From Raillietiella orientalis (Eukaryota), in NCBI GenBank assembly GCA_036172245.1, contig JAYWIR010000001.1:7998001-8062000 (forward strand): a DNA stretch of 64,000 nucleotides, given 5' to 3'. The position numbers and the translations under genes were made by a program. Numbering within the stretch: position 1 is the first letter of the stretch; each line of letters starts with the position of its first letter. The notes beneath the pieces are model-generated. The model was not told the DNA's origin and ran no database searches. It saw only the letters and a program-made list of their open reading frames with translations. Shown piece after piece: positions 13,921 to 63,500 of the stretch.

Positions 13921-14008
13921 TCGACACCGCAGATGCTTCACACACAATCACAATCCAAATAAATCGCTTTACACCAGGCGCGGAGGAGCGCTACAAAAAC
14001 ACGTCCGC

Positions 14009-23800: not shown

Positions 23801-24415
23801 CTTGGCGCCTGGAAGACGAGTGAGTTGGCGGACGCCGCCACTCCTCGTGTTACTGCAAAGGGACTCCTCCGGTGGGCAGAAGAACTTGCTGTCACCCCCG
23901 AAGAACTTGTAGTCCCTCTACAGTGTATTGACAGTTCGCTGCTCCCCCTTGCTTGGAAACAAGCCGTGCTGCTTTTCGTTCACTGGGGTTTTCAGTGCAA
24001 CGAGCGTTGGCATCGCTACTCCGGGGGACTTGCGTCTGCGAACTGCGTTCGGTGCGGATCGACGGAGTCGATTCCGCACCTACTTCTGGACTGCGGTGTC
24101 CTACAAGGACTGTGGCGTAGGCTGGCAACAGCACTAATGCATCCCGTGGACACCGCAAGAGACTTGCTGCCACGATTCTTCACGCCGAGCGGGCTGTCAC
24201 TAAGCGCAAGGATTGCAACCATCGGTTGCATACGCGCGATAGTTTCCGTCCGCCAGGCGTTGGTAATCAACGGACAGCACCAAGAGGTAATCAGCAAAGC
24301 ATCCTTCAACATGGGAGCATCCGCTAGATGGCCTCATTTGACAGAGGAGACAAAAAGGAATCTCGCCGCAATACACCGCCGGTTTACACACCCTCAGCAG
24401 CGGCCAACCCGGTGA
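20825..24415 (+). pseudogene. ORF2 APE-RT of E with a single nonsense codon
   Basis: ORFs 20825..23242 and 23276..24415 are in frame, separated by TGA at a conserved Trp (NALW); YTDD; CVRCGSTESIPHLLLDC. Confidence 0.92.
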
Positions 24416-28342: not shown

Positions 28343-28370
28343 GCGGACGTGTTTTTGTAGCGCTCCTCCG
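28343..28370 (+). promoter_or_regulatory. Conserved 5'-terminal motif (G/A)GACGTG(T/C)TTT..CGCTC, putative internal promoter (example copy)
   Basis: Found within ~6 nt of the 5' end in 9 elements. Function is inferred. Confidence 0.6.
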
Positions 28371-28430
28371 CGCCTGGTGTAAAGCGATTTATTTGGATTG
28401 TGATTGTGTGTGAAGCATCTGCGGTGTCGA

Positions 28431-30452
28431 ATGGCAGAAATGCCTGAGGACACCGCGATGGATATAGGAGGGGGAGAGGCTTGCTCCTCTCCCCAACCCA
28501 CGGAGGTGGGGGCAATCGCCCATACGGAGGCGACGGCAGCCGCACCCCTGAAAAAGGGGGCAACCGCCGCCTCGAAAGCGAGGGCAAAGGCCCCCTTGAA
28601 AAAGGGGGCAAAAGCCCCGCTGGAACAGGGTGCAACCGCCCCCTTGAAAAAGGGGACAACCGCAACCCTGGAAAAGGGCGCAACCGCCTCCTTGAAAAAG
28701 GGGGCACCTGCACCCTCGAATGCGTCTTCGGCATCGCCGAAGACCTGGAGTTCAGTGGCTGCAGCCCCATCTCCTGCAGCCCTCGCCGAGCAGAAAGCCT
28801 ACCTGGAGCAGGGATACAAGCCGTCCCTGATATACAAGATAGGCAATCTGTTTGTCGGGAACACCGCTCGCAACTTCGAAAGGGAGTTGCAGCGGTTGAA
28901 CGTAAAAGAGGAAGACCTGGAAGGTCTTTCCGTGTTGAGTTGTGGTCAGCGGGTGGAGCTGACTTGCAGAAATGCAAGCCTTGCTCAACACCTCCTGAAT
29001 ACGCCAATCACACTGGAAGGCCGAAAGGTTTTCTTGGTGACGGAGGATCGCTCCGTGGTGACGCACCTCACGGGAGTCACCCTCCGCATGTCGAAAGCCG
29101 ACGTGCAGGAGGAACTCGGAAAATACGGAACGGTTCACGCGCTATGGCCCAAGCCCAACGTCTTCCAGAGTTACGGAAGACTGTTTAGTGGCATGGCTGG
29201 TGCGCGTGTAACCGTCCACGAAAACGGTGGGCTACCCCACAAACTAGACGTCGGCAACGAGACCGTCGACGTCTGGTACGTGGGCAAGCCCAAGTACTGT
29301 GGACACTGTGATGCCACAGGGCACCTGAAAAAGCGGTGCCCTCACATCCAGTGTTTCCACTGTGGAGAGAAGGGCCACCTCCGCAAAGTGTGCCCGAAGC
29401 GCGAACCTCCGGCTCCCGCTGCCTTGAAAAATTCCAAAGGGAAACGCGCGGAGGCTACGGAAAACCCTGCGAAGGCACCCGTGAGGCGGAACCCACAGCC
29501 GGAGCCCGAGACCGTGCAGCAAACGCCGGTCGTGGAATCTACCGACGACGCTGAAAAGAGAGAAGGCTGGCAGAAGGCGAAGCCTAAAGCCAAGAAAATT
29601 AAGAAAACCGAAGGGTCGACAGCGGAACCCGCGACGTCTCCTTTAAATAGGAGACAAAGCCGCGCGTTGATCCGCGAATGTTCGGTCGCTTTGGAGCGTG
29701 TGGAGGTACCCGAGACCGCCACCGGGGGCGATATCCCCCGCGTCGACGCCGACGATAACGCGATTGCGGAAGGCGAACCCTCTGTGCAAACAGAGGGGGA
29801 ACCGCGCGACGCGCTCGCCGCGATCGACGAGGCCGCCTTCCAGCAGGCGGCGGAAGAGCTCGCGGCCGAACTCGCCGACCGTGAGAACGGCGCGCGAAAG
29901 GCCTTGCGAAGGCCGGCCGCGACCAGGGCACCTCCGACAGGTGACCACGACCCGGATGCCGGAAGTGCGTCCTCTTCCACGGAGGCGCCTCCGAAGAAGA
30001 CTGGACGGAAGTCCAAGAATCCCAAGAGGCGCATCCCGACGAAGAGCGAGGGGGACGTACCGGCAGCCGAGGGGGAAGCCGGCAGCGTGGGAACGGAGGA
30101 AGGAATTTTCCCACCCTCCGCCACCGAGCAGCCGGCCACCCCCATGGAGGAGGGGGAGCAGGCAGGGCATTGCCTCCCCCTTCCACCGGTGGAGCCTGCG
30201 GAGAAGATGGTCATGGAAGAGGGGGAGCAGTCAGCTGAGAACCGCTCCCACCTGCCGTCCAACGCAGTCAAGGAATCGGCCCCCAAGGAAGAGGGGAAGC
30301 AGGTGCGTGAAGCATGCTCCCTTCAACCGTTGCGGTCCGCCGAGGAATCGGCCCCCATGGAGGTGGGAGAACCGCTGGGCGGTGCCCCCATGCCTCCATC
30401 CGTCCCGCCCGACCAGGTGGCGGGAGCCCCATTGCCACTTTCCCGGGAATAA
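28431..30452 (+). CDS. ORF1 of A2 (673 aa)
   Basis: Differs from A1 ORF1 at two residues in the ORF track; two CCHC knuckles. Confidence 0.9.
   Translation: MAEMPEDTAMDIGGGEACSSPQPTEVGAIAHTEATAAAPLKKGATAASKARAKAPLKKGAKAPLEQGATAPLKKGTTATLEKGATASLKKGAPAPSNASSASPKTWSSVAAAPSPAALAEQKAYLEQGYKPSLIYKIGNLFVGNTARNFERELQRLNVKEEDLEGLSVLSCGQRVELTCRNASLAQHLLNTPITLEGRKVFLVTEDRSVVTHLTGVTLRMSKADVQEELGKYGTVHALWPKPNVFQSYGRLFSGMAGARVTVHENGGLPHKLDVGNETVDVWYVGKPKYCGHCDATGHLKKRCPHIQCFHCGEKGHLRKVCPKREPPAPAALKNSKGKRAEATENPAKAPVRRNPQPEPETVQQTPVVESTDDAEKREGWQKAKPKAKKIKKTEGSTAEPATSPLNRRQSRALIRECSVALERVEVPETATGGDIPRVDADDNAIAEGEPSVQTEGEPRDALAAIDEAAFQQAAEELAAELADRENGARKALRRPAATRAPPTGDHDPDAGSASSSTEAPPKKTGRKSKNPKRRIPTKSEGDVPAAEGEAGSVGTEEGIFPPSATEQPATPMEEGEQAGHCLPLPPVEPAEKMVMEEGEQSAENRSHLPSNAVKESAPKEEGKQVREACSLQPLRSAEESAPMEVGEPLGGAPMPPSVPPDQVAGAPLPLSRE
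28545..28710 (+). repeat. Six coding repeats (L-K/E-K/Q-G-A/T-x-A, mostly 27-bp period) in the A ORF1 N-terminus
   Basis: ttgaaaaagggggcaaccgcc-like units; also at ~13640-13805 (minus) and ~44855-45025. Confidence 0.85.
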
Positions 30453-33400
30453 CACCTGGGATCGCCTGTCGCCGTCGATTGCGTGTGGCATGCTGGAACG
30501 TCCACGGGCTGCGCGACGACAGCAACAGACGGGACACGGCAGCCACCCTGCGTGACTTCGACCTGGCACTCCTGCAGGAGATCCACGTGATCACCGGGGA
30601 GAACGCCCAGGAGATCGAGAGGATCGCAGAAGGGCGGCTGGTGTGGCAATGCGGCACCCGATACACCTGCGGCGTCGCGTTTTTTATGAAACCGGCGGTC
30701 GACGCTGCCGTGAAGGGCGTGCGCTTCGACGAAGCCGGTCGTGTCGGGCAGCTGATTCTCAGATGGTCCGACACGATCGACCTCGTCGTAACAAACGTAT
30801 ACGCCCCGAGCGGTTATAACAGGTAACGGGAACGCGCGGCGTTCCTGGAAAGCGTGAAGCACGACTGGCTGGTGGAAGCGAACGTGCGCGTGGCTCACCT
30901 GATAGCAGGAGACTTTAATCTCCGCCTGCTATCAGGTGAGCCACACGCACAGGAACGGACGGCTAACGTGTTGTGCGCCGCCATGCGCACGCGCAACTTG
31001 TTAGGGGATCTTTCAAAAATGGTCAGCAGCATCGACCACGTCTTCCTGGACGTCGACCTGTGCTGGCGGGTCGGTAAACGGGGGAAAGTTGCGTCGGAAC
31101 TGTCTGACCATTCCAGATTGATACTCGAGGTGTGCCCGCGCGACAAGGGACCCACGTCCAGGGCGTGGCGGTTGCCTGGTGACTGGACGCGCCTCTCAGG
31201 TGCAAAGGAACACCTTCGCGAATTCCTGAGAGGCGTCACCCTCCCCGGTCTCAAAGATTGGGACCTCTTCAAGGCCTCGGTCCGCGAATTCTGCGAGGAG
31301 TTCCCCCTGCACCGCCTGCCCCCCGGATTTAAGTAGGGGGCTCGGAACCATAGGGCCTATTTACAGGCCCGCCGGTACGAGAGGACGCACAATGTACGTC
31401 GCCTGGCAGAGTACCGAGCCGGGGCCGAACGTCAAGCCTGGCAATCCGGATCGGCCAGCTTGCTGGACGACCAGGGCCGGGAGCACTTAGCTCCGGCTAG
31501 AATACGGCACATCGTACGGCGTTATTATTCCTGCCTTTACGCCAGGGCGCCCCCGGACCAAGATGCCTCTGGGCGCTCACTTCCGAGCGGTGCCCCGGCA
31601 ATATGGGAGGAGGAGAAGGAAAGTCTCGACGAGCCTTTTATCACCGGCGATGTTCTCGCCGGTATCCAAAGGCTCAAGAGGCGGAAAGAACCAGGGGAGG
31701 ACGGCCTGCCTGCGGAGTTTTTTCAATGCTTCGCGGCAGAGTTGGCACCCCTAGTGCTTGAGTTGACAAGGCTGATCCGAGATGAAGGCGATGTACCCGC
31801 CTCTTTTCGGTCAGCCAGAGTGAGGCTCCTTCCGAAAGGAGGAGACCTCAGGAAACTCAGCAACTGGCGTCCGATCACAATTGTGAAGACGGACGACAAG
31901 TTGATCGCCGGACTGTGGGCTTCGCGTCTGGGGCAGGTGGCCAATTCCATAATTAGCCCGGAGTAGACTTACGCTGTTTCCGGGCGAAGTATGTAGGCCA
32001 CCTCTTCTTCGCGAGCACATGGTTTCATGTGCAGAGTAGTGAAGGATTGGCAGCCCCGCTTTGGGGGCGTCAGCCGGGCAGGGACAGGACTCCCAGGTGG
32101 GGAAGGGAGCCTTAGCGATGGCAGTCGATCTGCATAAAGCGTTTCACTGCGTGGACCAGGATCTCCTGCTGGAGCTCCTGGGACGCATGGGCTTCCCTCC
32201 CTCCCTACTGACCTACCTGCGCTCTTGCTGGCGCAGCGCGCTGATCAATATCTCTTTCAGAGGTCAAATGGCGTACAGCGTGCCGGTACGGCGGGGCATA
32301 CGGCAGGGCGACAGCCTCAGTCCCCTGCTTTTTAGCACCTACTTTGAGTTGGTGCTGAGAGCGTATAGGGTGACGTTGGCCCCCTTGCCGAACTCGTGCC
32401 CCGGCAGGCCCGCCGTAGCAGCGTACGCCGACGATCTTCTGCTTTTGTTGCCGATGTCCATCCCGGCAAAGGCATTCGAGGATTTCTTCGACCTGCTTAA
32501 CCGCGGAACCGGACTGCAGGTTAACAAGGCGAAGTCGTCGGTGGTACCAGACGGTGCGACGTGAGCTTGGCAGCAGGACTGGGTCCGTTTGGGGATCCCC
32601 TCGGCAAGGTGCTTGAAGTACCTCTGTGTGCCGTTGGGGGATTACTCCCCTTCGGATGCGTGGTCCGGCTGCCTCCAAAAAGTGGAAACGGCGATCGGCC
32701 CGTTCTTGGAAGACAAGTTCCTGCTTCCGGAACGGGCCGCGGTGTGGAACTCCTTTGCGGTTCCCATCCTCCGCCCCCTGCTTTTTGTTTGCCCCGTCCC
32801 CAGGGACATGAAGAAAAGGACGAAGGACCTCCTGAGGTTTTCCCTTTGGGGAAGAGGGAGGCCCCGAGTCCATTAGAAGGACTTGTGTGCTCCACGTTGG
32901 GATGGCGGTCTGAGCCTCTTGACGCTGGAGAGAGTAGAAATCCAGCTGCGATGGCGCACCCTGGCCATCGCAGCGAAGTTATGCAGCAACCCATGGTGCG
33001 TTGAGGCCCGACTCCTTGCCAGCCGTGTATCCGGAACGGAAGGTCTGGCGTCTCATCTTCTGTGCCGCCACTCGAAGATCAAGAGATGCGGACTCCTCCT
33101 GGGACGCAAGGCAACCCTGGCAAACGAAAACGGCTGGATGGAATGCAGCCCCGCCAACTCCTCCGCATGGTTGGAGGAGACAGCTGGCACGTGGGCGAAG
33201 ATAAACCAGAAGAACGGAGAGATGTGGAACTGCCTGCGACGCGGCGCCTATTCCCGCTACACTCTGCGGATGATACTCCAGTGTCCCGCGAGAAGCACGT
33301 GTGCAGAGACAACCCCCCTAGCTACGGCGATGCCCTTCCTGAGGAGGGCGCTCTCCAGGAGCCGCAAGCCTAGGTGGCAAGTCTCCTGCCGCATCGCAGG

Positions 33401-41888: not shown

Positions 41889-42286
41889 GACCGTCGCTGA
41901 TGCGTGAGACGGGAGATGTTCCCGCTTCTTTCCGCTCAGCAAACGTGCGGTTCCTGCCGAAAGGCGGGGATTTCCGCCATCTCAGCAACTGGCGTCCGAT
42001 CACCTTGGTGAATTCGGACGTCAAGTTGTTCTCCAAGCTATGGGTCGCGCGCATGGGGAGAATTTCGGAGTCCTTGGTAACTCCGGAGTAGACGTATGCT
42101 GTTCCGGTGCGGTCCAAGGACGCGAATCTCTTCTTCGCGCGAACATGGTTCGAGTTGCAGCGGCGCGTGGCGCAACAGAGCCAGACAGCCGAAATCGCCG
42201 CTGCCAAAGGTAAGCGGCGGTGTTCAAGGTACGATGGAACGCCGGGAGCCCTAGCGATCGCAGTCGATCTCCACAAGGCGTTCGAT
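41889..42286 (+). mobile_element. C/E-like RT fragment (K), bounded by H and B2 insertions
   Basis: MRETGDVPASFRSA, NWRPITLVNSDVKLF, and AVDLHKAFD at the right end. Confidence 0.85.
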
Positions 42287-44652
42287 TTTCACCCGGATTT
42301 CGCCGGGGCGTTTATTATAAAACAAACATTTACAAAGACGTGCAGTGGCTGGACCATTGCTCCAGCCACGCACGAAGAAACACAGAGCCTGCCGGGTCAC
42401 CGGTTCGCAGACCGTTACGGTCCACCACGGCAGCAGGGGGAAGGGGGAAAAACAAAAAAAAAAAAAACAAAACAAAACAAAAAAGAAAAAGAAAAGTTGG
42501 GAGGGTAAGGGAAGGGATCACAGTTGCTGGTGGGGCCGTTGCATCCTTTGCAGGATGCCGGCAAGCTCCTTCTGTATTCCTGGATCCAGGTGGGGCCATC
42601 GGGACGCCCTCCTCAGGAACTGGGAGGCTGGCTGGATGGCACCCTGGTCGCGTTGTCCTCCCGTAGCCTTGCTCCAAGCGGTGACGATCCCGCGTAGGCA
42701 GCACAAAGCTGCTAACGAGGCCGCTGGCCGAAGGGCGTCGGCAACGAAGAGGGCTTTCAGTGCGTCCCTGGGGTTGCGGCAGGGGATTCCGATGGCCGCG
42801 GCAAAGCGAAACCAAAGGGGCCGAAGGGCAACACAATCCACTAGCAGGTGGGGGAGGGACTCCCGTTCCCCACACCTGACGCAATTGGGGTCCACCGCTC
42901 CCCAGGTCCAGTGGTGTCGGCGGGCGTTGCAGGGGAGTCCCCAGTGCTGCAACAGGAGAGCCGACTCCTGCCATTTTAAGAAGAGGGCGGAAGTGTTCAT
43001 GAGCACCGGGGGCCACTTCAGATGTTCAATGGGAACATAGAGCAGCGCGCCCCAGCGCAGAAGTCCATTGGGAGGCGTACTCGGGGTCGCAGCGTCTGTT
43101 AACTGGCCCGTCTTCCACTCTCCTATCTTCTTCTCCTTTCCGGAGATTGTTACTGTAACCACCCACTTCGCCGCAACATCGCTGTCCAGATCTTCCATCA
43201 GGGAGGGCAGCGCAGCAGCGAGGGGGGTTCTTCCTGCCCACGCTCTCTTCTTTGGATCCTCCAGGATCTCGCGGAGCGTGCAACTTCTGTAACCCCCAAA
43301 CAGGAACCTTCGTTCCTGTTGGGAGCGTTGCATGCCGAACTGTCCCCACGTTCGAACGGTTTCCTGCAACCAGGCACTACCGTTCAACGGGCGACAGGTG
43401 AGCAATCCTGGGTTTTTCCGATACAGCGCAGCCATCCTCCGTAGCTGGAGTCAGCATCGGTTGACGCGGCGACGGAGTGCAAGAAACGACGTGAGTCCCG
43501 TCTTGCCGGTGGCTTGCTGGAGAAGGAGACGTGCAGGGACGCACCAACAGGTGCACCACAGCTCTGGAACGAGTGCCGACAAGCGGAACTGGAGCTGAAG
43601 CTCCAGCCGCTTCAGCGTCAGGAGGCCCAGACCACCATCCCGACGAGGAGCGCACAAGTCCTTTAAGCGGACTCGGGCCCTCCCGTTGCCCCAAAGGGCG
43701 ATACGGAGAAGGTCCTTCGTCCGCTTTTTGATCCTCTCTGTGGGGGGGCAAACAAAAAGCAGGGAGCGGAGGAGAGGAGCCGCGAACGTGTTCCAAACCG
43801 CGGCCCGTTCAGGCAGGAAAAACCTGCCGCCTCGGAACGGGCCGATAGCCGTCTCTACTTTTTGGAGGCAGCCGGACCACGCTTCCGCAGGGGAGTAGTC
43901 CCCCAACGGCACACCAAGGTACTTGAAGTACCTCACCGTGGGGATCCCCAAACGGACCCAGTCCTGCTGCCCTGCCCACGCCGCACCAACTGGCATCACG
44001 GACGACTTCGCCCTGTTCACCGTCAGTCCTGTTCCCCGACTCAGCAGGTCGAAGAACTCCTCGACCGCCGAAGCCGGGGTGGACATAGGGAGCAGCAGCA
44101 GAAGATCGTCCGCGTATGCCGAAACCGCAGGCGTACCGGGAAAATCGCACGGCAGGTGCGCCATAGTCTCCCTGTACGCTCTCAGCACCAATTCGAAATA
44201 GGCGCTGAAGAGCAGGGAGCTCAGGCTGTCTCCCTGCCGTATGCCGCGTCGCACCGGTACGCCGTACACGGTGGATCCACTAAAAAAAACATTAATAAGC
44301 GCGTCGCGCCAGCTGGAGCGCAGGTAGGCCAGCAAAGAGGCCGGGAAGCCCAAGCGTTCCAGAAGCTCCAAAAGGAGATTCTGGTCGACGCAATCGAATG
44401 CTTTATGCAAATGGACTGCGACCGCGAGAACTCCTCTCCCCTCCCGACCATACCGTCCCCCACCGACGGACGCACCGGAATTCCGGTTGCTTATTATGCT
44501 CCTTCCTTGTTGGAGCTCTAACCATGTGGAAGCGTGGAACAGGTTCGCCTCCATGCTCCGCCCGGGAACAGCATAAGTCTGTTCCGGGCTGATGAAGATG
44601 TTGGCAACCCGTCCCAGACGCTCTGCCCACATCTTGGCTATCAACTTGGCGT
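42287..44652 (-). mobile_element. Subfamily B copy 2, distal part; antisense in KAFD of K and cut by A3 at DAKL
   Basis: Same 3' end as B1 (42287-42317); RT with YADD; ORF 42518..43435 with CVRCGERESLPHLLVDC. Confidence 0.9.
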
Positions 44653-44740
44653 GCGGACGTGTTTTTTCCGCGCTCCTCTGCGCCTGTTGTAAAGCGTTCT
44701 TTTTCGGTAGTGGTTGTGTGTGGAGCATCTGCGGTGTCCA

Positions 44741-46762
44741 ATGGCAGAAATGCCTGAGGACACCGCGATGGAAGTCGGCGGGGGAGAGGATTGCTCCTCT
44801 CCCCAACCTATTGAGGTGGGGGCAATCGCCCCCACGGAGGAGAGAGAAACCGCTCCCTTGAAAAAGGGGGCAACCGCCTCTCCGGAAACGAAGGCTACTG
44901 CCACCTTGAAAAAGGGAGCAACCGTCCTCGTGCAAAAGGCCGCAACCGCCCCCTTGAAAAAGGGGACAACCGCCGCCTTGGAAAAGGGCGCAAACGCCTC
45001 CTTGAAAAAGGGGGCAACCGCGTCCTTGGATCCACCTGCTCCATGCACGAAGACCTGGAGCTCCGTGACTGCAGCGCCATCTCCTGCTGCCTTAGCAGAA
45101 CAACGGGCCTACGTGGAACAAGGATACAAGCCGTCCTTGATTTACAAGGTAGGAAACCTGTTTATAGGGAACACCGCTCGTAACTTTGAAAGGGAGTTAC
45201 AGCGGTTGGATGTCAAAGAGGAAGACCTGGAAGGTCTCTCCGTGATGAGTGGGGGCCAGCGGGTGGAGCTGACTTGCAAAAATGCAAGTCTGGCTCAACG
45301 CCTGCTGAACACTCCCATCACTCTGGAAGGCCGAAAGGTCTTCCCTCTAACGGAGGACCGCTCCATTGTTGCCCACCTTACGGGTGTAACTCTTCGCATG
45401 ACCAAAGCTGGCGTGCAAGAAGTGTTGCAAAAACATGGTACGGTGCACGCGCTCTGGACCAAGCCCAACGTCTTCCAAACGTACGGAAGACTGTTCAGTG
45501 GCATGGCTGCAGCGCGTGTGACGGTCTACGAAAACGGTGGGCTGCCCCACAAACTCGACGTCGGCAACGAGGTCGTCGACGTCTGGTACGTGGGCAAGCC
45601 CAAGTACTGTGGGCACTGTGATGCAACAGGGCACCTGAAAAAACGGTGCCCTCACATCCAGTGTTTTCACTGCGGGGAGAAGGGCCACCTCCGAAAAGTG
45701 TGCCCAAAGCGGGAACCTCCAGCGCCCTCTGCTTTGAAAAAAGGTAAGGGGAAACGCTCGGAGAAAACAAGCAAGACTACTGAAGCAAAGGAAAGGCCAA
45801 GCAAAAAGCCAGAGTCCGAAAGCTCCCAGCAAACGGCGGTCGAGAAAACTCCCGACGACGCTGGTGACAACGAGGACTGGCGGACAGCGAAGCCGAAAAG
45901 TGAAAAAATTCGAAAAACCGAAGAACCGACAGCGGAACCCGCGACAACTTCTCTAAATAGAAGGCAACGCCGCGCTTTGCTCCGCGAATGTTCGGTCTCT
46001 TTGGAGCGAGTGGAGATCCCCGAGACCTGCACCGGGGGAGATATCTCCCGCCTCGTTGACGCCGAAGCCGCGATCGAGGAAGGCGAACCCTCTGTGCAAA
46101 CAGATGGGGAGCCGAGCGACGCGCTCGCCGCAATCGAGGACGCCGCCTTCCAGCAGGCGGCGGAAGAGTTCGAGGCCGAACTCGCGGAGCGTGAGAACGG
46201 CGCGCGAAAGGCCTTGCGAAGGCCGGCCGCGAGCAAGGCACCTCGGACAGGTGACCACGAACCGGATGCCGGAAGTGCGTCCTCCTCCGCGGAGGCGCCT
46301 CCGAAGAAGACTGGACGGAAGTCCAAGAATCCCAAGAGGCGCATCCCGACAAAGAAGGAGGGGGACGCACCGGCATCCGAGGGAGAAGCCGGCAGCGTGG
46401 GAACGGAGGGAGGGATTTTCTCACCCTCCGCTACCGAGCAACTGGAGATCCCCATGGAGGAGGGGGATAAGGTGAGTGATTGCCGCCCCCTCCCAACGGT
46501 GGAACCTGTTCAGGAGATAGCCATGGAGGAGGGGGAGCAGACAGCTGACAACCGCTCGCCCCTGCCGTCCAACGCAGCCAACGAATCGGCCCCCATGGAA
46601 GAGGGGGAGCAGGTGCGTGAAACCCGCCCCCTTCAACCGTTGCGGTCCGCCGAGGAATCGGCCCCCATGGAGGAGGGAGAACCGGTGCGCGGTGATCCCG
46701 TTCCTCCATCCGTCCCGCCCGACCAGGTGGCGGGAGTCCCATTGCCACTTTCCCAGGAGTAA
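44741..46762 (+). CDS. ORF1 of A3 (673 aa), diverged variant
   Basis: Open frame, same length and knuckles as A1/A2. Confidence 0.9.
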   Translation: MAEMPEDTAMEVGGGEDCSSPQPIEVGAIAPTEERETAPLKKGATASPETKATATLKKGATVLVQKAATAPLKKGTTAALEKGANASLKKGATASLDPPAPCTKTWSSVTAAPSPAALAEQRAYVEQGYKPSLIYKVGNLFIGNTARNFERELQRLDVKEEDLEGLSVMSGGQRVELTCKNASLAQRLLNTPITLEGRKVFPLTEDRSIVAHLTGVTLRMTKAGVQEVLQKHGTVHALWTKPNVFQTYGRLFSGMAAARVTVYENGGLPHKLDVGNEVVDVWYVGKPKYCGHCDATGHLKKRCPHIQCFHCGEKGHLRKVCPKREPPAPSALKKGKGKRSEKTSKTTEAKERPSKKPESESSQQTAVEKTPDDAGDNEDWRTAKPKSEKIRKTEEPTAEPATTSLNRRQRRALLRECSVSLERVEIPETCTGGDISRLVDAEAAIEEGEPSVQTDGEPSDALAAIEDAAFQQAAEEFEAELAERENGARKALRRPAASKAPRTGDHEPDAGSASSSAEAPPKKTGRKSKNPKRRIPTKKEGDAPASEGEAGSVGTEGGIFSPSATEQLEIPMEEGDKVSDCRPLPTVEPVQEIAMEEGEQTADNRSPLPSNAANESAPMEEGEQVRETRPLQPLRSAEESAPMEEGEPVRGDPVPPSVPPDQVAGVPLPLSQE

Positions 46763-46952
46763 CACCTGGGCTCGCCTGTCGCCGTCGATTACGCGTGGCC
46801 TGCTGGAACGTGAACGGGCTGCGCGACGACGGCAACAGACGGGACACGGCCGCCACCCTGCGTGACTTCGACCTGGCACTCCTGCAGGAGATCCACGTGA
46901 TCACCGCGGAGAACGCCCAGGAGATCCAAAGGATCGCAGGGGAACGGTTGAT

Positions 46953-48033
46953 TGTCACCCGGGTGCGCCGGGGCGTTTATTATAAACTATCCGGGAACAG
47001 GGTTCCCGGACAAAGGGGAAAACAAGAGACGAAGGGGGTGGGATCCCCGACACGCAGGTAGGTATGACGAAAGTCCGGAACGGGAGGGAAGGGACCACAA
47101 ACACACTACTATATAAAAAAATAAAAGAAAAATATGGAGGGCAGGGGACAGGGCTCTTTGGTGAGTCCGTTCCTTCCTTTCAAAACCGGCGATGGATGCC
47201 GGCGATCTCTCTCCTTACGCCCTGTGGCAGATGGGCCCACTGGGCAGCCGACGACATGTTTGCGCTGGCTAATCCGGTGGGCTGACGAAGGATGGCCAGC
47301 TTCTCCAACTCTCGGTGGGCCATGTCGATGGCGCGGGTGCAACACACGGTTGCAACGACAGCACCCAATGACAGGCCGCCTGGCGTGAAGAAGCGGCGCA
47401 TCAACTCCCTCGCGGTGTCCCCCTGGTGCAGGAGAGCTGAGGCCAGCCTCCGCCAGAGTCCTAGAAGGGCACCGCAGTCCAGGAGCAGGTGCGGGAGCGT
47501 TTCCACTTCCCCGCACCGCTTACAGTTTGGGGAGACGACTACCCCTTAAACAAGGTTCGTGCGCTGGTTGGAGTGAAAACCCCAATGCACCAGAATAATC
47601 ACGTCCTGCTTCCACGAAAGGGGGAACACAGAAGTGTTCAGACACGAGGGAGGAACCACAAGTTCTTCAAGGGGCACACTCAAGTGTTCGCTCCACCGAA
47701 GGAGTCCCTTCGGAACGTGGTGAGGTGTGGCGGCGTCCGCCAGCTCGCAAGTCTTCCAGACGCCAATAGGTCGCGTTGTTCCTGCGATGGTGCAGGCGAC
47801 CTCCCATCTCGCCGGTTCGCAACTGTCATCTCTTGCCCTGAGGGCTGACAGTGCGTCTTCGAGGGGGGTGACGGCCAGGCGGGTCCACTTCTCCTGGCTG
47901 TTGCACACCTCATCCTCCGTGCAGTACGGGGAGAGGTGAGCGCAACGGAGTTCCAGGAGGGAAACATCCTGGTGCTTTGCCCAGCCATGCAACGGTTCCT
48001 GCCGCCAGGCTTCAAAGTTCGTTGGGCGGTAGT
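46953..48033 (-). mobile_element. Subfamily C copy 1, 5'-truncated (~1.08 kb)
   Basis: Near-identical to the 3' end of C2; flanked by target copies g(a/g)acggttgat at 46939-46952 and 48034-48047. Confidence 0.93.
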
Positions 48034-48274
48034 GGGGGACGGTTGATTGTCACCCGGGTGCGCCGGGGCGTTTATTATAAACTATCCGGGAACAGGGTTC
48101 CCGGACAAAGGGGAAAACAAGAGACGAAGGGGGTGGGATCCCCGACACGCAGGTCGGTATGCCGAAAGTCCGGAACGGTAGGGAAGGGACCACAAACACA
48201 CTACTATATAAAAAAATAAAAGAAAAATATGGAGGGCAGGGGACAGGGGTCTTTGGTAAATCCGTTCCTTCCTT

Positions 48275-51200
48275 TCAAAACCGGCGATGGATGCCGGCGA
48301 TCTCTCTCCTTACGCCCTGTGGCAGATGGGCCCACTGGGCAGCCGACGACATGTTTGCGCTGGCTAATCCAGTGGGCTGACGAAGGATGGCCAGCTTCTC
48401 CAACTCTCGGTGGGCCTTATCGATGGCGCGGGTGCAACACACGGTTGCAACGACAGCACCCAATGACAGGCCGCCTGGCGTGAAGAAGCGGCGCATCAGC
48501 TCCCTCGCGGTGTCCCCCTGGTGCAGGAGAGCTGGAGCCAGCCTCCGCCACAGTCCTTCGAGGACACCGCAGACGAAGAGCAGAGGCGGGAGCGTTTCCA
48601 CTTCCCCGCACCGCTTACAGTTTGGGGAGACGACTCCCCCGGAAACAAGGTTCGTGCGCTGGTTGGAGTGAAAACCCCAATGCACGAGCATAATCACGTC
48701 CTGCTTCCACGAAAGGGGGAACACAGAAGTGTTCAGACACGAGGGAGGAACCACAAGTTCTTCAAGGGGCACACTCAAGTGTTCGCTCCACCGAAGGAGT
48801 CCCTTCGGAACGTGGCGAGGCGTGGCGGCGTCCGCCAGCTCGCAAGTCTTCCAGCCGCCAATAGGTCGCGTTGTTCCTGCGATGGTGCAGGCGACCTCCC
48901 ATCTCGCCGGTTCGCAACTGTCATCTCTTGCCCTGAGGGCTGACAGCGCGTCTTCGAGGGGGGTGACGGCCAGGCGGGTCCACTTCTCCTGGCTGTTGCA
49001 CACCTCATCCACCGTGCAGTACGGGGAGAGGTGAGCGCAACGGAGTTCCAGGAGGGAAACATCCTGGTGCTTTGCCCAGCCATGCAACGGTTCCTGCCGC
49101 CAGGCTTGAAAGTTCGTTGGGCGGCAGGAGATCCATTCCTGGGCTTCCAGGAGCCGATACAGCGGTTTCAAGGGGAAACCGAAGCTTCTCGTGGCGCGCT
49201 CCGTGTGCGGCCGCAGCGACAGAAGTCCATCGCTGCCTGTGCAGCGCCGCAGAAGCAGGCGCGCGGGAGCGCACCACGGAGTGGACCAAAGGTTGGCGCA
49301 CAGGGCCAACATCCGAAGCTGCACCTGCAGCTCGATTCTCTCCAGCGTCAGGATGCCTAATCCAGCATCCCGACGCGGAGCCGCCACGTCTTTGAGGCGG
49401 ATCCTGGACCTCGCAGGTCCCCACAGAGCGTTCCTCAACAGGCTGTGCGCCTGGAGCTTGGCCGAGTAGGGGGGCGGGCAAACAAAAAGCAGGGGGCGCA
49501 AGAGAGGGGCAACGAAGGTGTTCCATATCGTGGCCCGCTCCGGCAGGACGACCCTGCCATGGTGGAACGGGCTCAGGGCATTCGAAGCCTTCCGAAGGCA
49601 GTCCGACCACACTTCCATTGGGCTGATGTTCCCCAGCGGAACGCCCAGATATTGCACGGAGGACGCGGTCGGGATCCCCAGGCGGATCCAGTCGGACTGC
49701 CCCTCCCACGCCGCACCAATAGGTACGACCACGCTCTTGCTCCGGTTTACGCTCATGCCCGCTCCCCGGCGAATCAGCTCGAAGAAATCCTCGAGACTGG
49801 ATGCCGGGGTGGTCATGGGTAAGAGGAGGAGCAGGTCGTCAGCATAGGCCGCCACGGACGGCGTTCCTGGACAAGAGCTCGGCAGGTTGGCCAGCGTCAG
49901 CCTGTACGCCCTCAGCACCAACTCAAAGAAGATGCTGAAGAGCAACGGGCTTAAGCTGTCGCCCTGCCTGATGCCCCGCCGCACCGGCACGCCGTACACG
50001 TGGCAGCCGCTAAAAGAGATCGAAATGAGCGCGTGGCGCCAGCAAGCGCGCAAATACGCCACGAGGTGCACCGGGAGACCGAGGCGTTCCAGGAGCTCCA
50101 GCAGGAGATCCTGATTTACGCAATCGAACGCCTTGCGGAGATCGACCGCGACCGCCAAGGCACCCGGCGCTTCCCCAGGGCGAATGCAGCGACGCCTAGC
50201 CTCGGCAGCCGCAGACGCGGTTGCCTGGCTGTCGTGCGCCACGCAGCGTTGCAGCTCGAGCCACGTGCGCGCGAAGAACAGGTTCGCCTCCATGGACCGC
50301 CCGGGAACAGCGTAAGACTGCTCCGGACTTACCACGGATCCAGCGATCCTGCCCAGGCGCGCGACCCACAGCCTGGAGAACAACTTGACGTCCGCATTCA
50401 CCAAGGTGATGGGACGCCAGTTGCTTAAATGGCGCATGTCTCCGCCTTTCGGCAACAGACGCACCCTTGCTGAGCGAAACGAGGCCGGGACATTGCCCGT
50501 CTCTCGCATCAGCGCAGAAAGCCTCAGCACCAGGGGGATGAGTTCCGCCGCGAAGCACTGGAAGAACTCCGCAGGCAGACCATCCTCACCTGGCGCCTTG
50601 CGCTTCTTGAGGCCCGCTATGGCGGAAGACACTTCTTCCGCCGTGAAGGGCAGGTCAAGAGTGGCGCGTTCCTCCTCGTCGACCGCCGGGGAATCCGCCG
50701 GCAGAAGCAGCTCCGAGAGACTGCGTTCCGTCGGCTCCCTAGCGTACAACAAGGAGTAATAGCGCTTTAGGAGGCGGCGAACTTCGGCCGCGCCCGAGCA
50801 CTCCAGGCCCTGGTCGTCGAGCAGACAAGCTGCTCCTGACTGCCAGACCTGGCGCTCGGCCTTGGCCTTGTACTCCGCAAGGTACCGGACGTCCGGGCAT
50901 CGGAAGAATTGGCGGGCCTGCAGAAACTCTCTGCTGTTGGCCACGCCTTCCCCGAAGCCACGGGGAAGCAGGCGCAAGGGGAACCGGCTGCAGAACTCGC
51001 GGACCGATCTTTTCAGATCGTCCCAGTCCACGAGCTCTCGAACGGCAAAGGTCCGGAGATGCTGGCGGAGGTGCTCCGCAGCCACCGGATTTCTCAACCA
51101 GTCGGCCGGCAACCTCCAGACGTGCGTCGGAGGGCCCTTGCCAGGCGGGAGTAGCTCAAACTCCAGCCTGTAGTGGTCGGAAAGCTCGGACGGCACGGGA

Positions 51201-51853
51201 CCTCTTCGACCCACCCGGCAATGCAGGTGATCGTCGAGGAACACATGGTCCGGCAAAGCACGCATTCCGGGATCGTCGGCCAGCAAATTCGAGGCGTGCA
51301 CCGACGCGCAAACCTCGTTCACCAGCCGTTTCTCCCGGCGACGGTGAGACTCCTCCGATAGCGCGTGGACGTTGAAGTCCCCGGCTACGAGGTGAGCCAC
51401 GTCGGGGCCGGAGTTGCTGAGCCAGCGGTCGCGCAGTCTCTCGAAAAACTCCAGTTTCTCGGTGTGACGCGCGGAGCCGCTCGGCGCGTACACGTTCGTG
51501 ACGACAAGGTTGATCGATTCGGACCACTTGAGAACAAGTTGGCCCACACGACCTTCCTCGTCGAAACAAACGCTCCGCATCGCTCCCGCCACCCTGCCCC
51601 GGACAAGGAATGCGACTCCGCAGGTATTCTGGGAGCCTGACCTCCAATGGAGCGTCCCGCCTGCGCGAACTTGCAGATCGGCCGCTTGCTGCTCGGAGAG
51701 TGCGTGAATCTCCTGCAGCAGGGCCAGATCGAAGTCGCGCAAGACGTTGGCAACCAATCGCCTCTTCTCGTTGTCCTGCAGCCCGTTGACGTTCCAGCAG
51801 GCCACTCGGACGCGACGGGAAGAAGCGAGACCGCGCATTGCTGCTACGGACAT
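48275..51853 (-). CDS. Uninterrupted ORF2: APE endonuclease, reverse transcriptase and C-terminal knuckle (1192 aa; may start at the second Met, MRGLAS)
   Basis: WNVNG, LQE, NVYAP, GDFN, DH, SDH; APGEDG, WRPI, KAFD, QGDSLSP, YADD, YLG; CKRC...ETLPP (His replaced by Pro). Confidence 0.95.
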   Translation of the reverse strand: MSVAAMRGLASSRRVRVACWNVNGLQDNEKRRLVANVLRDFDLALLQEIHALSEQQAADLQVRAGGTLHWRSGSQNTCGVAFLVRGRVAGAMRSVCFDEEGRVGQLVLKWSESINLVVTNVYAPSGSARHTEKLEFFERLRDRWLSNSGPDVAHLVAGDFNVHALSEESHRRREKRLVNEVCASVHASNLLADDPGMRALPDHVFLDDHLHCRVGRRGPVPSELSDHYRLEFELLPPGKGPPTHVWRLPADWLRNPVAAEHLRQHLRTFAVRELVDWDDLKRSVREFCSRFPLRLLPRGFGEGVANSREFLQARQFFRCPDVRYLAEYKAKAERQVWQSGAACLLDDQGLECSGAAEVRRLLKRYYSLLYAREPTERSLSELLLPADSPAVDEEERATLDLPFTAEEVSSAIAGLKKRKAPGEDGLPAEFFQCFAAELIPLVLRLSALMRETGNVPASFRSARVRLLPKGGDMRHLSNWRPITLVNADVKLFSRLWVARLGRIAGSVVSPEQSYAVPGRSMEANLFFARTWLELQRCVAHDSQATASAAAEARRRCIRPGEAPGALAVAVDLRKAFDCVNQDLLLELLERLGLPVHLVAYLRACWRHALISISFSGCHVYGVPVRRGIRQGDSLSPLLFSIFFELVLRAYRLTLANLPSSCPGTPSVAAYADDLLLLLPMTTPASSLEDFFELIRRGAGMSVNRSKSVVVPIGAAWEGQSDWIRLGIPTASSVQYLGVPLGNISPMEVWSDCLRKASNALSPFHHGRVVLPERATIWNTFVAPLLRPLLFVCPPPYSAKLQAHSLLRNALWGPARSRIRLKDVAAPRRDAGLGILTLERIELQVQLRMLALCANLWSTPWCAPARLLLRRCTGSDGLLSLRPHTERATRSFGFPLKPLYRLLEAQEWISCRPTNFQAWRQEPLHGWAKHQDVSLLELRCAHLSPYCTVDEVCNSQEKWTRLAVTPLEDALSALRARDDSCEPARWEVACTIAGTTRPIGGWKTCELADAATPRHVPKGLLRWSEHLSVPLEELVVPPSCLNTSVFPLSWKQDVIMLVHWGFHSNQRTNLVSGGVVSPNCKRCGEVETLPPLLFVCGVLEGLWRRLAPALLHQGDTARELMRRFFTPGGLSLGAVVATVCCTRAIDKAHRELEKLAILRQPTGLASANMSSAAQWAHLPQGVRREIAGIHRRF

Positions 51854-53756
51854 GGAGGTGCGTTCCTCGCCCCGTCCGGCGAGGCATCAGCCGGGAGCAC
51901 GGCGGATGAGGTAGCGCAAGCGCTTCCTGTCCCCGCCGCGCCGCTCGCGGCCGGCTCGGTGGAGTCGAGGACCATTGCCTCGGGCTCCGAGGAGCATCGG
52001 TAACCGTTCCCGGCATCAGGCTCTTGCCTGGCAAGTTTTGGCTTGCGCGCAGCCCTGGCCTTGACCGGGGCTTGGCGAGCCTTAGCGCTGCCCTCGGACT
52101 CCACCTCGGAGTCCGAATTGCGCGCGCGCGGCGGCGGGCGTTTCGCCTGCCTCTTTGTTTGCTGGCAGCCCGGAGCTGGTCCAGCACTCTTAGAGGGCGC
52201 CTTCGTCGCCGATCCCCCTTTCGGGGTCACGGCTTCGGCAGCTCCCCTCTCGCCGCGGGTGTTTGCGGCGGCGCGCGCGGCGGCAGCAGAGGCTTTTCCT
52301 TGCGCCTTTCTGGGCGCGCGGAGTTGCCTCTTCACCCCGCCTACCTTTTGGATCGGGAAGTGGGAAGGATCGCGCGGTTTGCGCTCCTTCTTTCCCCCGA
52401 CGAAGGTCCAGCCATCCTCGCCGCCTTCCTGTTTGCCCCGGTTGGGCGCGAGGGCTTCCAGGGTCCTTCGCATCCTTTCCAAGGCCTCGGATACGGCGAT
52501 GGAGGCCAGTGTCTCCTTCGCCACGTCTGCCTTCTGCACCTCCTTACCGGGAGGTGCGGGCACAGTGGCGGGATTCTCGGGTGTCGCGCGAGGCTTTTCA
52601 GCCTTTGCTGGCGTTCGGCCCGCCGTGGCCGGCTTGCCTGTCGCGGGCAAAGGGGCGCGCGACCCCTTTTTCGACGCTCCGGTGGTCTTCCCGGGCGTGC
52701 CACCGCTATTTCGCTCCGGAGCGAGAGCGGACGGAAGCGGCGGTGGTTTTGCAGCCTGCCCGATGTTATCGGCGGGCTGGGTCGCTCGGGGCTTTACTGA
52801 AGCAGCCTGGAGGAGCTTCTTGTCCTTTCGCGCGGGTTTTTGTGGAGCATTGCTCCGAGAATCGCCCGCGCAAGCGGACTTTTCACTTCTCCGCTGAGAA
52901 TGCTCGTTCGCGCCTGATTTCTTCCCCGACGACGGGGCGGATGGAGTCGGCGCGGACGGCGATGTTGCGGGGGGGTTTCTCGCCCTCCTCTTTCGTTTCA
53001 GCTCGGCGCACTCGTTAATCGAGTGGCCGAGCAGCTTACAGTATCGGCAACTGCGTGTTGGGCACTTCCGCGGACGGTGGCCCTCCTTCCCGCAGTTGCC
53101 GCAAGCGGGGGTTTGCCCGGCAAACCGGAGATAGACGACGACGTCACCGAGGAGGATCTGCGAAGGCATGAGCCTCGGGTCGTCCATGGTGACGCGCGCC
53201 GTCGCGAGTCCGCAAGAGAGGCGCGCGACTTTATCGATCGGGTTCGCGCGCCTCCACATCGCGTGCACTGTGGCGAACGCCTCGAGTGCAACAATGATGT
53301 CGCGGTCCGTTATTCTCGGCCTAATTCCCGAGAGCTGGACCACGAACGATTGATCCAGGGCCGAGGGGACGACCTCCTTACCCCTGATGTTCAGGGGGGT
53401 TCGCAGTAGGCGCTGGACGAGGGCTGCATCCTTGCAGTGCACCTCCCAATGGCCTACCGCGCTCACTGGCATAATTGCCAGGAGATCGTCCTCTCGGACC
53501 CCTACGCGTTCCAGCTCGCTCCAGAGCTGGTTGCCCGTCCCATCCCGGTACGCGGCACTGACCTTGTAGGCCAGAGGGGGGTTGTAGCCGCTCGCGGCGT
53601 ACGCCCGCAGCTCTGCCTCGTCGGGTGGGGCTCCGTGAGCCGCCGCTGCCTTAGCAACGGCGGCAAAACTTCTCGCTGGAGGCGAGGGACGATCGGTAAA
53701 GGCTTCCGCTCCTCCCGAAGAAGGTCCTGCGGCGCAGGGGGATTCCTCCACCTCCA
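51844..53756 (-). CDS. ORF1 of C2, 5'-truncated but open
   Basis: CGNCGKEGHRPRKC and CRYCKLLGHSINEC. The first ~90 aa of the predicted 726-aa ORF are antisense host sequence. Confidence 0.85.
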
Positions 53757-55115
53757 GGGACGGTTGATGTGGCAATGCGGCACCCGATACACCTGCGGCG
53801 TCGCGTTTTTTATGAAGCCGGCAGTCGACGCAGCCGTGAAGGGCGTGCGCTTCGACGAGACCGGTCGTGTCGGCCAGCTGATTCTCAGGTGGTCCGACAC
53901 GATCGACCTCGTCGTAACAAATGTGTACGCTCCGAGCGGTCCTACCAGGTTCTAGGAACGTAAGGCGTTCCTGGAAACCCTGAAGCGCGACTAACTGGTA
54001 GAAGCGAACGTGCGCGTGGCTCACCTGATAGCGGGAGACTTTAATCTCCGTCTGCTATCAGGTGAGCCACACGCACAGGAACGGACGGCTAACCAGTTGT
54101 GCGCCGCCATGCGCACGCGCAACTTGTTAGGGGATCTTTCGGAAATGGTCAGCAGCATCGACCACGTCTTCCTGGATGTCGACCTGTGTTCACAGGTCGG
54201 CAAACGGGGGAAAGTTGCGTCGGAGCTATCTGATCATTTCCGGTTGATATTCGAGGTGTGCCCGCGCGACAAGGGCCCCCCATCCAGGGCGTGGCGTCTG
54301 CCTGGGGACTGGACGCGACTCTCAGGTGCGAAGGAACACCTTCGCGAATTCCTGAGAGGCGTCACCCTCCGCAATCTCGCTTGAAACCCGGGTGAGCCGG
54401 GACGTTTATTCTCACGAATAAACCTATATAATCTGTGACTGGACCAGTAGTCCAGCCACGCCCTGGAAAGATATGCTTGCCGGGCTACCGGTGCGCAGAC
54501 CGGCGCGGTCGACCTCGGCAGCAGAGGGGAGGGGGAACGAAACAAAAAGAAAACAAAAAAATAAACAAAATCAGGGAGGGAGCGGGAAGGGATCACAGTC
54601 TGCTGTGAGGGTCCGTCATCCTCTGGAGGATGCCGGCAAGCTGTTTCTGCGTGTGTGGTTCCAGATGGGGCCATCGCGTCGCCATCCTGAGGAAACGGGC
54701 GGCATACACGTTGGCATCCCTGTCGCTGGATCCTCCCGTCGCTTTGCTCCATGCCACGACGATCCCGCGTAGGCAGCACAGGGCTGCAAGCGAGGCCGCT
54801 GGAGGCAGGGCGTCACGGACGAAGAGGGGGCGCAAAGCGTCTCTGGGGTTGCCTCCGGGGATCCCCAGGGCTGCGGCAAAGCGTTCCCACAAGGGACGGA
54901 GGGCAACACAATCCACTAACAGGTGGGGGAGGTATTCCCTCTCCCCGCACTCGACACAATTAGGGTTGACACCCCCCCGCGTCCAGTGGTGTCGGCGGGC
55001 GTTGCAAGGAAGCCCCCAATGCAACACCAGCAGTGCCGACGGTCAGACGTGTTCTCTGCGCGCTCCTGACTCGCTCGACTTTATTGGTGTAGTGCGGTGC
55101 ATCAGTGGTCGGGGG

Positions 55116-60500: not shown

Positions 60501-60530
60501 AATAAACGCCCCGGCGCACCCGGGTGTAAA
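60501..60530 (+). terminator. Conserved 3'-terminal AATAAA plus CCCGG/CCGGG hairpin (example copy)
   Basis: Present at 12 element 3' ends, three of them degenerate; no poly(A) tail follows. Confidence 0.7.
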
Positions 60531-63500
60531 AGCAGTGCCGACTGTTGCCACTTCATGGGGAGGGTGCGCGAGTCCATGAGCACCGGGGGCCACTCGAGAT
60601 GTTCCTCTGGAACATCCAGTAGCTCTCCCCAGCGCAAGAGTTCATTTGGGGTGGTCTTCGGGGTCGCAGCGTTGGTGAGCTGACCCGTTCTCCAATCCCC
60701 GATCTTCCTTGCCCTGCTGGCGATCTTGACAGTAACCTCCCATTGTGCCGCGACGTCGCTGCCCAGATGTTCCCCTAGGGTAGGCAGCACCGCAGCAAGG
60801 GAGGTTCTTTGTGCCCACGCTCTCCTTCGGGGATCCTCGATGATTTCTCGGAGCGTGCGGTGGGCATGCGGCCCAAACAGAGCTATTCGCTCGTGTTGCG
60901 GGCTCTGCTCCTGAATCATCGCCCACGTGCGCACGGTTTCCTGCAGCCAGGCAGGACCGTTCGCGGGGCGTACGAGGATTCGCGCCGAGTTGTTCTTCAC
61001 GAGCTTGGCTGCCCTCCGAAGTTGAAGTCCGCAGTGGCAGATGGGGCTTCAGAGTGCAAAGTAGGACGAGAGTCCCGCATTGCCGGTGGCTCGCTCGACG
61101 AGGAGACGTGCAGGGAGGCACCAAGGGGTGCACCAATTTTCTGCCATAAAGGCGACAACTCGGAACTGGAGCTGTAGCTCCAGCCGCTCCAACGTCAGGA
61201 GGCCCAGACCACCATCCCGACGAGGAGCGCACAAGTCCGAAAGACGGACTCGGGGCCTCCCGTTGCCCCAAAGGGCGATCCTCAGGAGGTCCTTCGTCCT
61301 CTTCTTTGACTCCGCTGAGGGGGGGCAAACAAAAAGCAGGGAGCGGAGGAGAGGAGCCGCGAACGTGTTCCAAACCGCGGCCCGTTCAGGCAGGAAAAAC
61401 CTGCCGCCTCGGAACGGGCCGATAGCCGTCTCTACTTTTTGGAGGCAGCCGGACCACGCTTCCGCAGGGGAGTAGTCCCCCAACGGCACACCAAGGTACT
61501 TGAAGTACCTCACCGTGGGGATCCCCAAACGGACCCAGTCCTGCTGCCCTGCCCACGCCGCACCAACTGGAATCACGGACGACTTCGCCCTGTTCACCGT
61601 AAGTCCGGTTTCCCGATTCAGCAGGTCGAAGAACTCCTCGACCGCCGCAACCGGGGTGGACATAGGGAGCAGCAGCAAAAGGTCGTCCGCGTATGCTGAA
61701 ACGGACGGCGTACCGGCACAGTCGTGCAGCAGGTGCGCCAGAGTTCCCCTGTACGCTCTGAGTACCAACTCAAAGTAGGTACTGAAGAGCAAGGGGCTCA
61801 GGCTGTCTCCCTGCCGGATGCCACGCCGCACAGGCACGCCGTGCACGGTCTGCCCGCTGAAAGTAACGTTGATGAGCGCGTCGCGCCAGCAGGAGCGCAG
61901 GTAGGCCAACAAAGAGGCCGGGAAGCCCAAGCGTTCCAGAAGCTCCAGAAGGAGATTCTGGTCGACGCAATCGAATGCTTTCCGCAAGTCGACTGCGACC
62001 GCAAGGGCTCCCTCCCCCACCCGACCATCCGACCCCCTGCCGGCGCACGCACCGGAATTCCGGCTGCGCACCAAGCTCCTTTCATGTTGGAGCTCTAGCC
62101 AGGTGGAAGCGTGGAACAGGTTCGCCTCCATGCTTCGCCCGGAAACAGCATATGTCTGTTCCAGGCTGATGAAGATGTTGGCAACCCGTCCCAGACGCTC
62201 TGCCCAAACCTTAGCCAGCAACTTGGCGTCCGCATTCACTATTGTGATGGGACGCCAGTTGTTCATGCTCCTCAGATCTCCTCCCTTAGGGAGGAGCCGC
62301 ACCTTTGCCGAACGAAACGAGGCGGGAACGTCACCTGTTTCGCGTATCAGCAAGGTGAGTTGCTGTACCAGGGGGAAAGCTCAGCCGCGAAAGTTTGAAA
62401 AAACTCCGAGGGCAGGCCGTCCTCCACTGGAGCCTTTCGCCTCTTGAGCTTTCCGATGGCCGAGAGGATCTCGTCCATCGTGAAAGGCTCGTCGAGGGTC
62501 TTGCTCTGCTCCTCCCCGATCGCTGGAGCGCCTTCCGGAAGTAGGATTCGTGAGACGTTCCTCTCCGGAGGTGCCCTAGCATACAGGGAGGAGTAGTATC
62601 TCCGCAGCAGGCCGCGGATTTGGGCAGGTGCCGAGTGCTCCTGGCCCCGATCGTCCAGTAAGCCGGCTGATCCGGACTGCCAGGCTTGTCTCTCGGCTCC
62701 CGCTTTGTATTCCGCCAGCCTGCGGATGTCGGGGGTCCTGGCGTAGCGACGGGCCTGCAGGTAGGCTCGTTCGTTACGGACCCCGGTCCCAAAACCCGTA
62801 GGTAAGCGGTGCAGAGGGAACTGGTCGCAGAACTCCTGGACCGACCGCTTGAAGCGGTCCCAATCCTGGAGTGTCCGCAGCCTGAAGCTCCGTATGAACG
62901 TGCGGAGATGTTCCGCCGCGTCCGGGAGCTTCAGCCAGTCCCCTGGGAGACGCCACGCTGACGAGGGGGGGCCCCTGTCGCGCGGATGGATCTCGAGGAC
63001 TAGCGGGCGATGGTCGGACAGCTCGCACGGTAACTTGCCGCGCCTGCCCACGCGAGGGCACAGGTGCTCGTCAAGAAACACGTGGTCAATGCTGTCTTCC
63101 ATCCCCAGTGCACTGGCCAACAAATTACAGGTGTGCACCGCCATGCACACCTCGTTGACCAGGTCACGCCCGGGATTCTGCCCATCTGGTTTCAGGCGAA
63201 CGTTGAAATCGCCTGCAACCAGATGGGCATTCCGCACGCCTGCTTCGGTCAGCCAGTCTCGCCGGAGGGCAAGGAAAAACTCTTTCCTCGCCCTCCTGGA
63301 CATCAGGTCCTTGCCGCTCGGTGCGTACACGTTCGTGACGATCAGATCGATCGAGTCGGACCACCTGAGAGTCAGCTGGCCGACACGACCGTGATCGTCG
63401 AACCGCACGCCTCGAGCCACGGCCTCGACGGCTGGCCGAAGCAGGTAGGCGACACCGCAACTTTTCGCTCTCCCACACCTGTACCATAGCCGCCCTCCGG

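Follow-up and report, generated by a model that had tools for sequence, protein, structure and literature searches.

Two copies, C1 and C2, of a long interspersed element (LINE) here called C lie in tandem within a 64,000-nucleotide stretch of the Raillietiella orientalis genome (GenBank assembly GCA_036172245.1, contig JAYWIR010000001.1, positions 7,998,001 to 8,062,000, forward strand). This whole stretch is referred to as the window, and all coordinates are counted from its first nucleotide. Judged by its sequence, C appears to be an L1-like retrotransposon without long terminal repeats (non-LTR) that carries two open reading frames (ORFs); its family is unannotated. Both copies are carried on the minus strand, and the insertion interrupts the endonuclease-coding region of ORF2 in H_P3, an older, related L1-like element on the plus strand. 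Three copies of a 13-bp target sequence are found at the element boundaries, giving the order target-C1-target-C2-target, as had been claimed in an earlier note on this DNA. Two paralogs of the host region, P2 in direct and P1 in inverted orientation, bear the same site without an insertion. The features of the locus are as follows (UTR, untranslated region; AP, apurinic/apyrimidinic).

44711-46939, plus strand: left part of the host element H_P3, with ORF1 at 44711-46762 and, from 46768 on, the initial ~58 codons of ORF2
46940-46952, plus strand: left 13-bp target copy, GGGAACGGTTGAT; host sequence, reached by the host alignment to the empty paralogs, adjoining the 3′ end of C1
46953-48029, minus strand: C1, the 3′ 1.08 kb of the element, 5′-truncated, with ORF2 residues ~922-1203 and a 227-nt 3′ UTR
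48030-48034, no strand assigned: junction filler, TAGTG as read on the plus strand, separating the middle target copy from the truncated 5′ end of C1
48035-48047, plus strand: middle 13-bp target copy, GGGGACGGTTGAT, between C1 and C2
48048-53755, minus strand: C2, a 5.7-kb near-full-length L1-like element with the same 3′ end as C1
48275-51886, minus strand: ORF2 of C2, 1203 codons, open throughout, with AP endonuclease and reverse transcriptase domains
51847-53757, minus strand: ORF1 of C2, 637 codons, open; its N-terminal half is of RNA-binding type, and it carries two CCHC knuckles
53756-53768, plus strand: right 13-bp target copy, AGGGACGGTTGAT, followed by the host sequence GTGGCAATGCGG
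53769-54378, plus strand: right part of H_P3, ORF2 residues ~80-285, cut at 54378 by the 3′ end of the minus-strand element J/M
30631-30643, plus strand: empty site in the direct paralog P2 (AGGGCGGCTGGT region), a single target copy, uninterrupted
11706-11718, minus strand: empty site in the inverted paralog P1, a single target copy, uninterrupted

The earlier note had described the repeated target as a 9-nucleotide core, ACGGTTGAT, and this core does start at 46944, 48039 and 53760. Alignment of the three junctions with the empty-site paralogs extends the repeat to 13 bp, and the copy held in the tandem junction is as long as the outer ones (13 bp at 46940, 48035 and 53756). Any two of the three copies differ at no more than two positions, and the first two are followed by an identical continuation, TGTCACCCGGGTGCGCCGGGGCGTTTATTATAAAC. 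The core occurs four times in the window versus 0.31 expected, at least four occurrences being reached in none of 100 shuffles; the fourth match, at 678, lies in the AT-rich left flank of the window. The 13-mer with up to two mismatches is also found four times, versus 1.63 expected, and at least four were obtained in 11 of 100 shuffles. This count alone is not significant, and the weight of the 13-bp copies derives from their positions exactly at the element ends.

The host sequence is continuous across the insertion. ORF2 of H_P3 aligns over residues ~19-76 at 46768-46941 and over residues ~75-285 at 53734-54378. P2 (25947-30629 and 30631-31244) is about 90% identical to the H_P3 region (right flank 90.9% by BLAST) and shares 93% identity with the inverted P1 (9772-15066). 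Both paralogs read CGCAG-AAGGGCGGCTGGT-GTGGCAATGCGG straight across the site. The left junction in H_P3 reads CGCAG-GGGAACGGTTGAT and then C1, while its right junction passes from C2 into AGGGACGGTTGAT-GTGGCAATGCGG. Since the empty paralogs hold a single target copy, the locus represents a real insertion accompanied by a real target-site duplication (TSD), and since they are uninterrupted, the insertion of C is later than the segmental duplication that produced them.

C1 and C2 share their left end on the plus strand, TGTCACCCGGG; given the minus-strand orientation of both copies, this is the 3′ end of the element, which in C1 reads AATAAACGCCCCGGCGCACCCGGGTGACA. The earlier note had described two slightly diverged copies with different 5′ truncations and called for their alignment. 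Both parts of this description hold. The segments 46939-48032 and 48034-49127 are 96.8% identical by BLAST over 1094 bp, with 33 substitutions and no gaps, at a period of exactly 1095 bp. C1 starts at about residue 922 of ORF2. The start of C2 falls within the 5′ UTR, ~100 nt in, as placed by alignment of its 5′ end with the related full-length element C′ (18826-24728). Both copies are therefore 5′-truncated, by very different amounts, their 5′ ends being ~4.6 kb apart in element coordinates and their 3′ end exactly common. The terminal motif GAGnGAGGACGTG, present at two full-length 5′ ends, is missing from C2, which probably lacks ~100 nt at its 5′ end. At the 5′ junction of C1, the first three letters of the filler (TAG) possibly still belong to C, where C2 reads CAG, so that the number of extra bases is 2 to 5. 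Extra bases are common at the 5′ junctions of LINEs.

C2 retains coding capacity in both frames. In its ORF2, Pfam identifies an AP-type endonuclease domain (Exo_endo_phos, E 5.9e-16, residues 31-238) followed by a reverse transcriptase domain (RVT_1, E 1.2e-22, residues 479-750), and the same two domains occur in another element of the window, F. C1 carries one in-frame TAA, at 47545-47547. No ATG is found near the start of ORF1 in C2; the ORF1 frame (51844-54054, minus strand) stays open for 98 codons further into the host antisense, likewise with no ATG there.

We consider it probable that two separate target-primed insertions of C entered one site, and the proposal of the earlier note that a regenerated target admitted a second insertion by target-primed reverse transcription (TPRT) stands as the best explanation of the locus. 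In the first step, a C copy would have been inserted by TPRT into the endonuclease-coding region of the older sibling element. A nick in the plus strand at GGGGACGGTTGAT^GTGGCAAT and one in the opposite strand, at a distance of 13 bp, would have left a 13-bp TSD. Each duplicated target copy would still present the nick site, and insertion of a second C RNA at the same two nicks could then generate target-C1-target-C2-target. A second event at the right-hand target would place the new element between the old element and the right-hand copy. The sequence on either side of the first nick (the target and then GTGGCAAT) is preserved at the right-hand copy alone, so the truncated C1 would have come first and the long C2 second. 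What is inferred here is that insertion happened twice, which copy came first and where the nicks lay. C1 would be the older copy and C2 the younger, which fits the open frames of C2 and the stop codon of C1. A regenerated target is sufficient for this pattern, so strict site specificity is not required. The length of the duplication is also in range, as other nested members of the superfamily have TSDs of 9, 13 and 11-12 bp.

Several points weigh against two insertions. The layout is taken from the assembled sequence, and the window holds a single C locus, with no second one showing a site preference. When the 33 differences between C1 and C2 are polarised with C′, the C1 branch receives 12 and the C2 branch 13, with 8 left unpolarised, and the changes in the coding part (9 synonymous, 18 non-synonymous) are even over both branches. 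By these counts C1 and C2 are alike in apparent age and neutrality, as would be expected of a duplication no less than of two insertions close in time, and dating does not separate the two histories. The sequence GCAGG(A/G)GA, a 7/8 match, is present in C2 at 49124-49131 and in the host at 46936-46943, the expected breaks of a microhomology-mediated duplication. Finally, the window carries large segmental duplications.

The symmetry and neutral appearance of the changes, the microhomology at both would-be breakpoints and the duplications elsewhere in the window, together with the exact and gap-free 1095-bp period, would all be accommodated by a single C insertion after which a 1095-bp stretch, comprising 13-14 bp of target and the 3′ 1.08 kb of C, was locally duplicated in tandem through replication slippage or microhomology-mediated repair. 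We regard this history as unlikely. The junction that the microhomology predicts differs from the actual one at ~4 of 12 positions, two extra bases included, but the units themselves differ by only 3%. The left breakpoint would also have to match, to within ~2 nt, the outer edge of the TSD, an edge that is set independently by the right copy. Five pairs of self-matches were found in the window at 88% identity or more over at least 150 bp: one between P1 and P2, two between P2 and P3 (the H_P3 region), one of 623 bp between P1 and P3, and the C1/C2 pair. The P1/P2 match and both P2/P3 matches belong to the large segmental duplications, and no other kilobase-scale local tandem duplication is among the five.

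The equal apparent age of C1 and C2 would also suit one integration event, in which the reverse transcriptase switched, after a truncated cDNA, to a second C RNA carrying read-through target, or in which the donor was already a dimer. Template switching by LINE reverse transcriptases is established. Such an event is nevertheless very improbable here: the read-through RNA would have to end exactly at the 13th target base, one continuous cDNA would not readily give a long copy upstream of a truncated one, and all 33 differences would have to be pre-existing or later changes. Equally hard to credit is an assembly artefact in which diverged haplotypes or repeat copies of the C 3′ end were joined in tandem, since, error-prone as a dense nest of related repeats is for assemblers, 33 substitutions without indels over 1094 bp are not an exact duplication, and a complete 13-bp target with a short filler at the junction is a biological signature that would be unexpected from mis-joined reads.

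The earlier note had gone further in likening C to the site-specific elements of the R1 and Tx1 kind. This part of its claim is not supported. No second C locus is found in the 64-kb window. C′, a sister lineage with 66% ORF2 identity, sits in the element H_18 at a different site and with a different 9-bp TSD, ATTTCAATC. Four further targets are used by H_P2, F, G/K and J/M: H_P2 is inserted in G/K with the 13-bp TSD AGCAACTTGGCGT, F is inserted in J/M with a TSD of 11-12 bp, (A)GCAGTGCCGAC, and for G/K in H_18 and J/M in H_P3 the 3′ junction alone is visible. The homologous sites in other ORF2 copies of the window (H_P1, H_P2, H_18, F, K, M, C2 itself and C′) are empty in 8 of 8 cases, and none has the same 13-mer. 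These checks within the window argue against site specificity of C, and jockey dimers, described below, point the same way. A target motif common to the superfamily was also considered and rejected, as comparison of six sites yields no consensus and, at most, a weak C|A at the nick. At 676-687, GACGGTTGATGT matches the C target over 12 nt across the nick position; this site, in the AT-rich flank of the window, is empty, and no homology to the host is evident by eye. The match is probably due to chance.

The signature of double insertion is already known from R1, from Tx1-mobilised SINEU-3 and from jockey. In the portions of McGurk and Barbash (2018, Genome Res; PMC5932611) drawn on here, dimers arising by double insertion are described as having a TSD in the tandem junction, tail-to-internal junctions and distinct 5′ truncations. 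Jockey dimers were also read there as double insertions, six of the ten mapped having clearly distinct truncations, and jockey is treated as an element without marked insertion-site preference. The C locus agrees with these dimers in its same-orientation copies, the TSD in the junction, the tail-to-internal arrangement and the differing truncations. It differs in that the host of C is another LINE of the same superfamily within a nest, and in being a single example from one fixed sequence. The same source describes dimers and arrays of R1 in Drosophila melanogaster with copies of the ribosomal DNA (rDNA) target between units, two elements having entered the same target. R1 resembles C as a non-LTR element with target copies between its units; however, by that description R1 is confined strictly to one site in 28S rDNA, and from a dimer it grew to a large array with 33-nt spacers, whereas C has two units and a 13-bp spacer.

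A third parallel comes from crocodilian short interspersed elements (SINEs). According to the sections of Kojima (2015; PMC4494074) consulted, SINEU-3, which is mobilised by Tx1, forms tandems "sandwiching a TSD" within a mariner-type transposon, and these were ascribed to sequential insertion. Its preferred target is Mariner-N4_AMi, with 313 examined copies (90%) at one target, and a target preference is reported there for many LINEs of the Tx1 clade. As in C, the target lies within another transposon and a TSD separates the tandem copies; SINEU-3 copies, however, are SINEs found mostly at one target, whereas C is an autonomous LINE with one locus visible.

The locus illustrates how a TSD allows a LINE to enter the same place twice, such double entry being the proposed first step from a dispersed element to a tandem array. 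It is a clean case with an internal control, as the empty-site paralogs are found in the same window. What is new is the example from an unannotated LINE family; it is ordinary in kind and by itself leaves existing knowledge unchanged. Provided that the genome can be examined, greater promise lies in the nest of self-inserting LINEs around it.

Both strands of the window from 8.2 to 64 kb are filled by this nest, whose ORF1 and ORF2 fragments all derive from a single diversified L1-like superfamily. Its subfamilies are inserted into one another and are ~65-80% alike in DNA, and its G+C content is 57-65%, versus 41-46% in the first 6 kb. The Zepp and ZeppL elements of green algae, nested clusters of L1-type LINEs as described in the parts used here of PMC3446292, PMC8226300 and PMC9940879, offer a parallel: they too form nested clusters of their own kind, with a G+C content above that of the rest of the genome and many 5′-truncated copies. 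The present nest resembles these clusters and by this analogy could mark a centromere-like region. The likeness is to the published description of Zepp rather than to its sequence, and the look-alikes of C ORF1 differ from it in being of animal type. A bolder reading, which we hold to be doubtful, is that the C lineage recognises a site of 13 bp or more in the endonuclease region of its sibling, and that the 56-kb block is a self-targeting, centromere-like LINE nest comparable to Zepp but with an animal-type ORF1. If this were true, C would be a LINE specialised in disabling a competitor LINE, and the double hit would be the footprint of site specificity rather than of a chance hot spot.

For C, a word-seeded protein search returned distant relatives only, with 38 proteins at E ≤ 0.001 and a best match of 24% identity over 72% of the query. 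An exhaustive HMMER search of 1.84 billion representatives returned 40,621 proteins at E ≤ 0.001, the nearest of which, P0041, is 62% identical over 589 residues and the next 36%. The next matches to P0041 come from ticks, frogs, fishes and plants, at 28-30% identity. Language-model look-alikes of C2 ORF1 (0.90-0.94) fall in CCHC and ZCCHC3-type clusters, mostly animal, and serve as a lead only. Two CCHC knuckles are seen in the translation of this ORF1, where the Pfam zf-CCHC score is 12.8 bits, below the cut-off of 20.8; ORF1 of the host element scores 21.7 bits. The zf-RVT domain falls below its curated cut-off in the siblings of C (24.2 bits in F versus 27.5, and 17.6 bits in C′).

All subfamilies of the nest end in AATAAACGCCCCGG-loop-CCGGGTG..A(A), with a variable loop and no poly(A). 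Twelve sites carry this 3′-end motif in the window versus 1.41 expected, and 12 were reached in none of 100 shuffles. The following are examples.

46953-46980: 3′-end motif
48048-48075: 3′-end motif
24700-24728: 3′-end motif
60502-60531: 3′-end motif

A small terminal hairpin is predicted at the 3′ end in 5 of 5 copies folded, a prediction without covariation support, and Rfam gave no match at gathering scores.

C2 has lost the conserved His and Asp from the CCHC motif at the C-terminus of ORF2, PPLLFVC standing in place of PHLLLDC. This loss lies within a cluster of 7 changes in 27 bp (region 48555-48589). The His is kept in all 11 other aligned copies, and the full C..C...H....C is visible in 9 of these; one of the others has no last Cys, and the alignment of the other stops short of that Cys. 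Gene conversion was rejected as the source of the cluster, as a search with the 35-mer, allowing up to three mismatches, returned no other match in the window.

Several further observations concern the nest itself. The left part of lower G+C holds decayed remnants of ORF2 together with two more 3′ ends of the superfamily (4549-4985, 6365-7758 and 7855-8195), and the nest therefore grades into older, eroded copies. At 16353-16400, a 17-nt sequence, GTCGAATCCCCGCTGTG, separates the 3′ end of one element from the full-length 5′ end of another subfamily (H_18) in a head-to-tail pair. This pair, considered as a second dimer at 16353-16388, might be another case of target reuse; no second copy of the 17-mer is found in the window. 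A composite block, in which a full-length element and the 3′ part of another meet head-to-head, is present three times (9772-15066, 25947-31244 and 42244-46939 plus 53756-54370), 90-93% alike and once inverted, which points to segmental duplication inside the nest. All three paralogs carry a 24/48-nt minisatellite in ORF1 of the host subfamily, at 13631-13843, 28535-28724 and 44848-45030.

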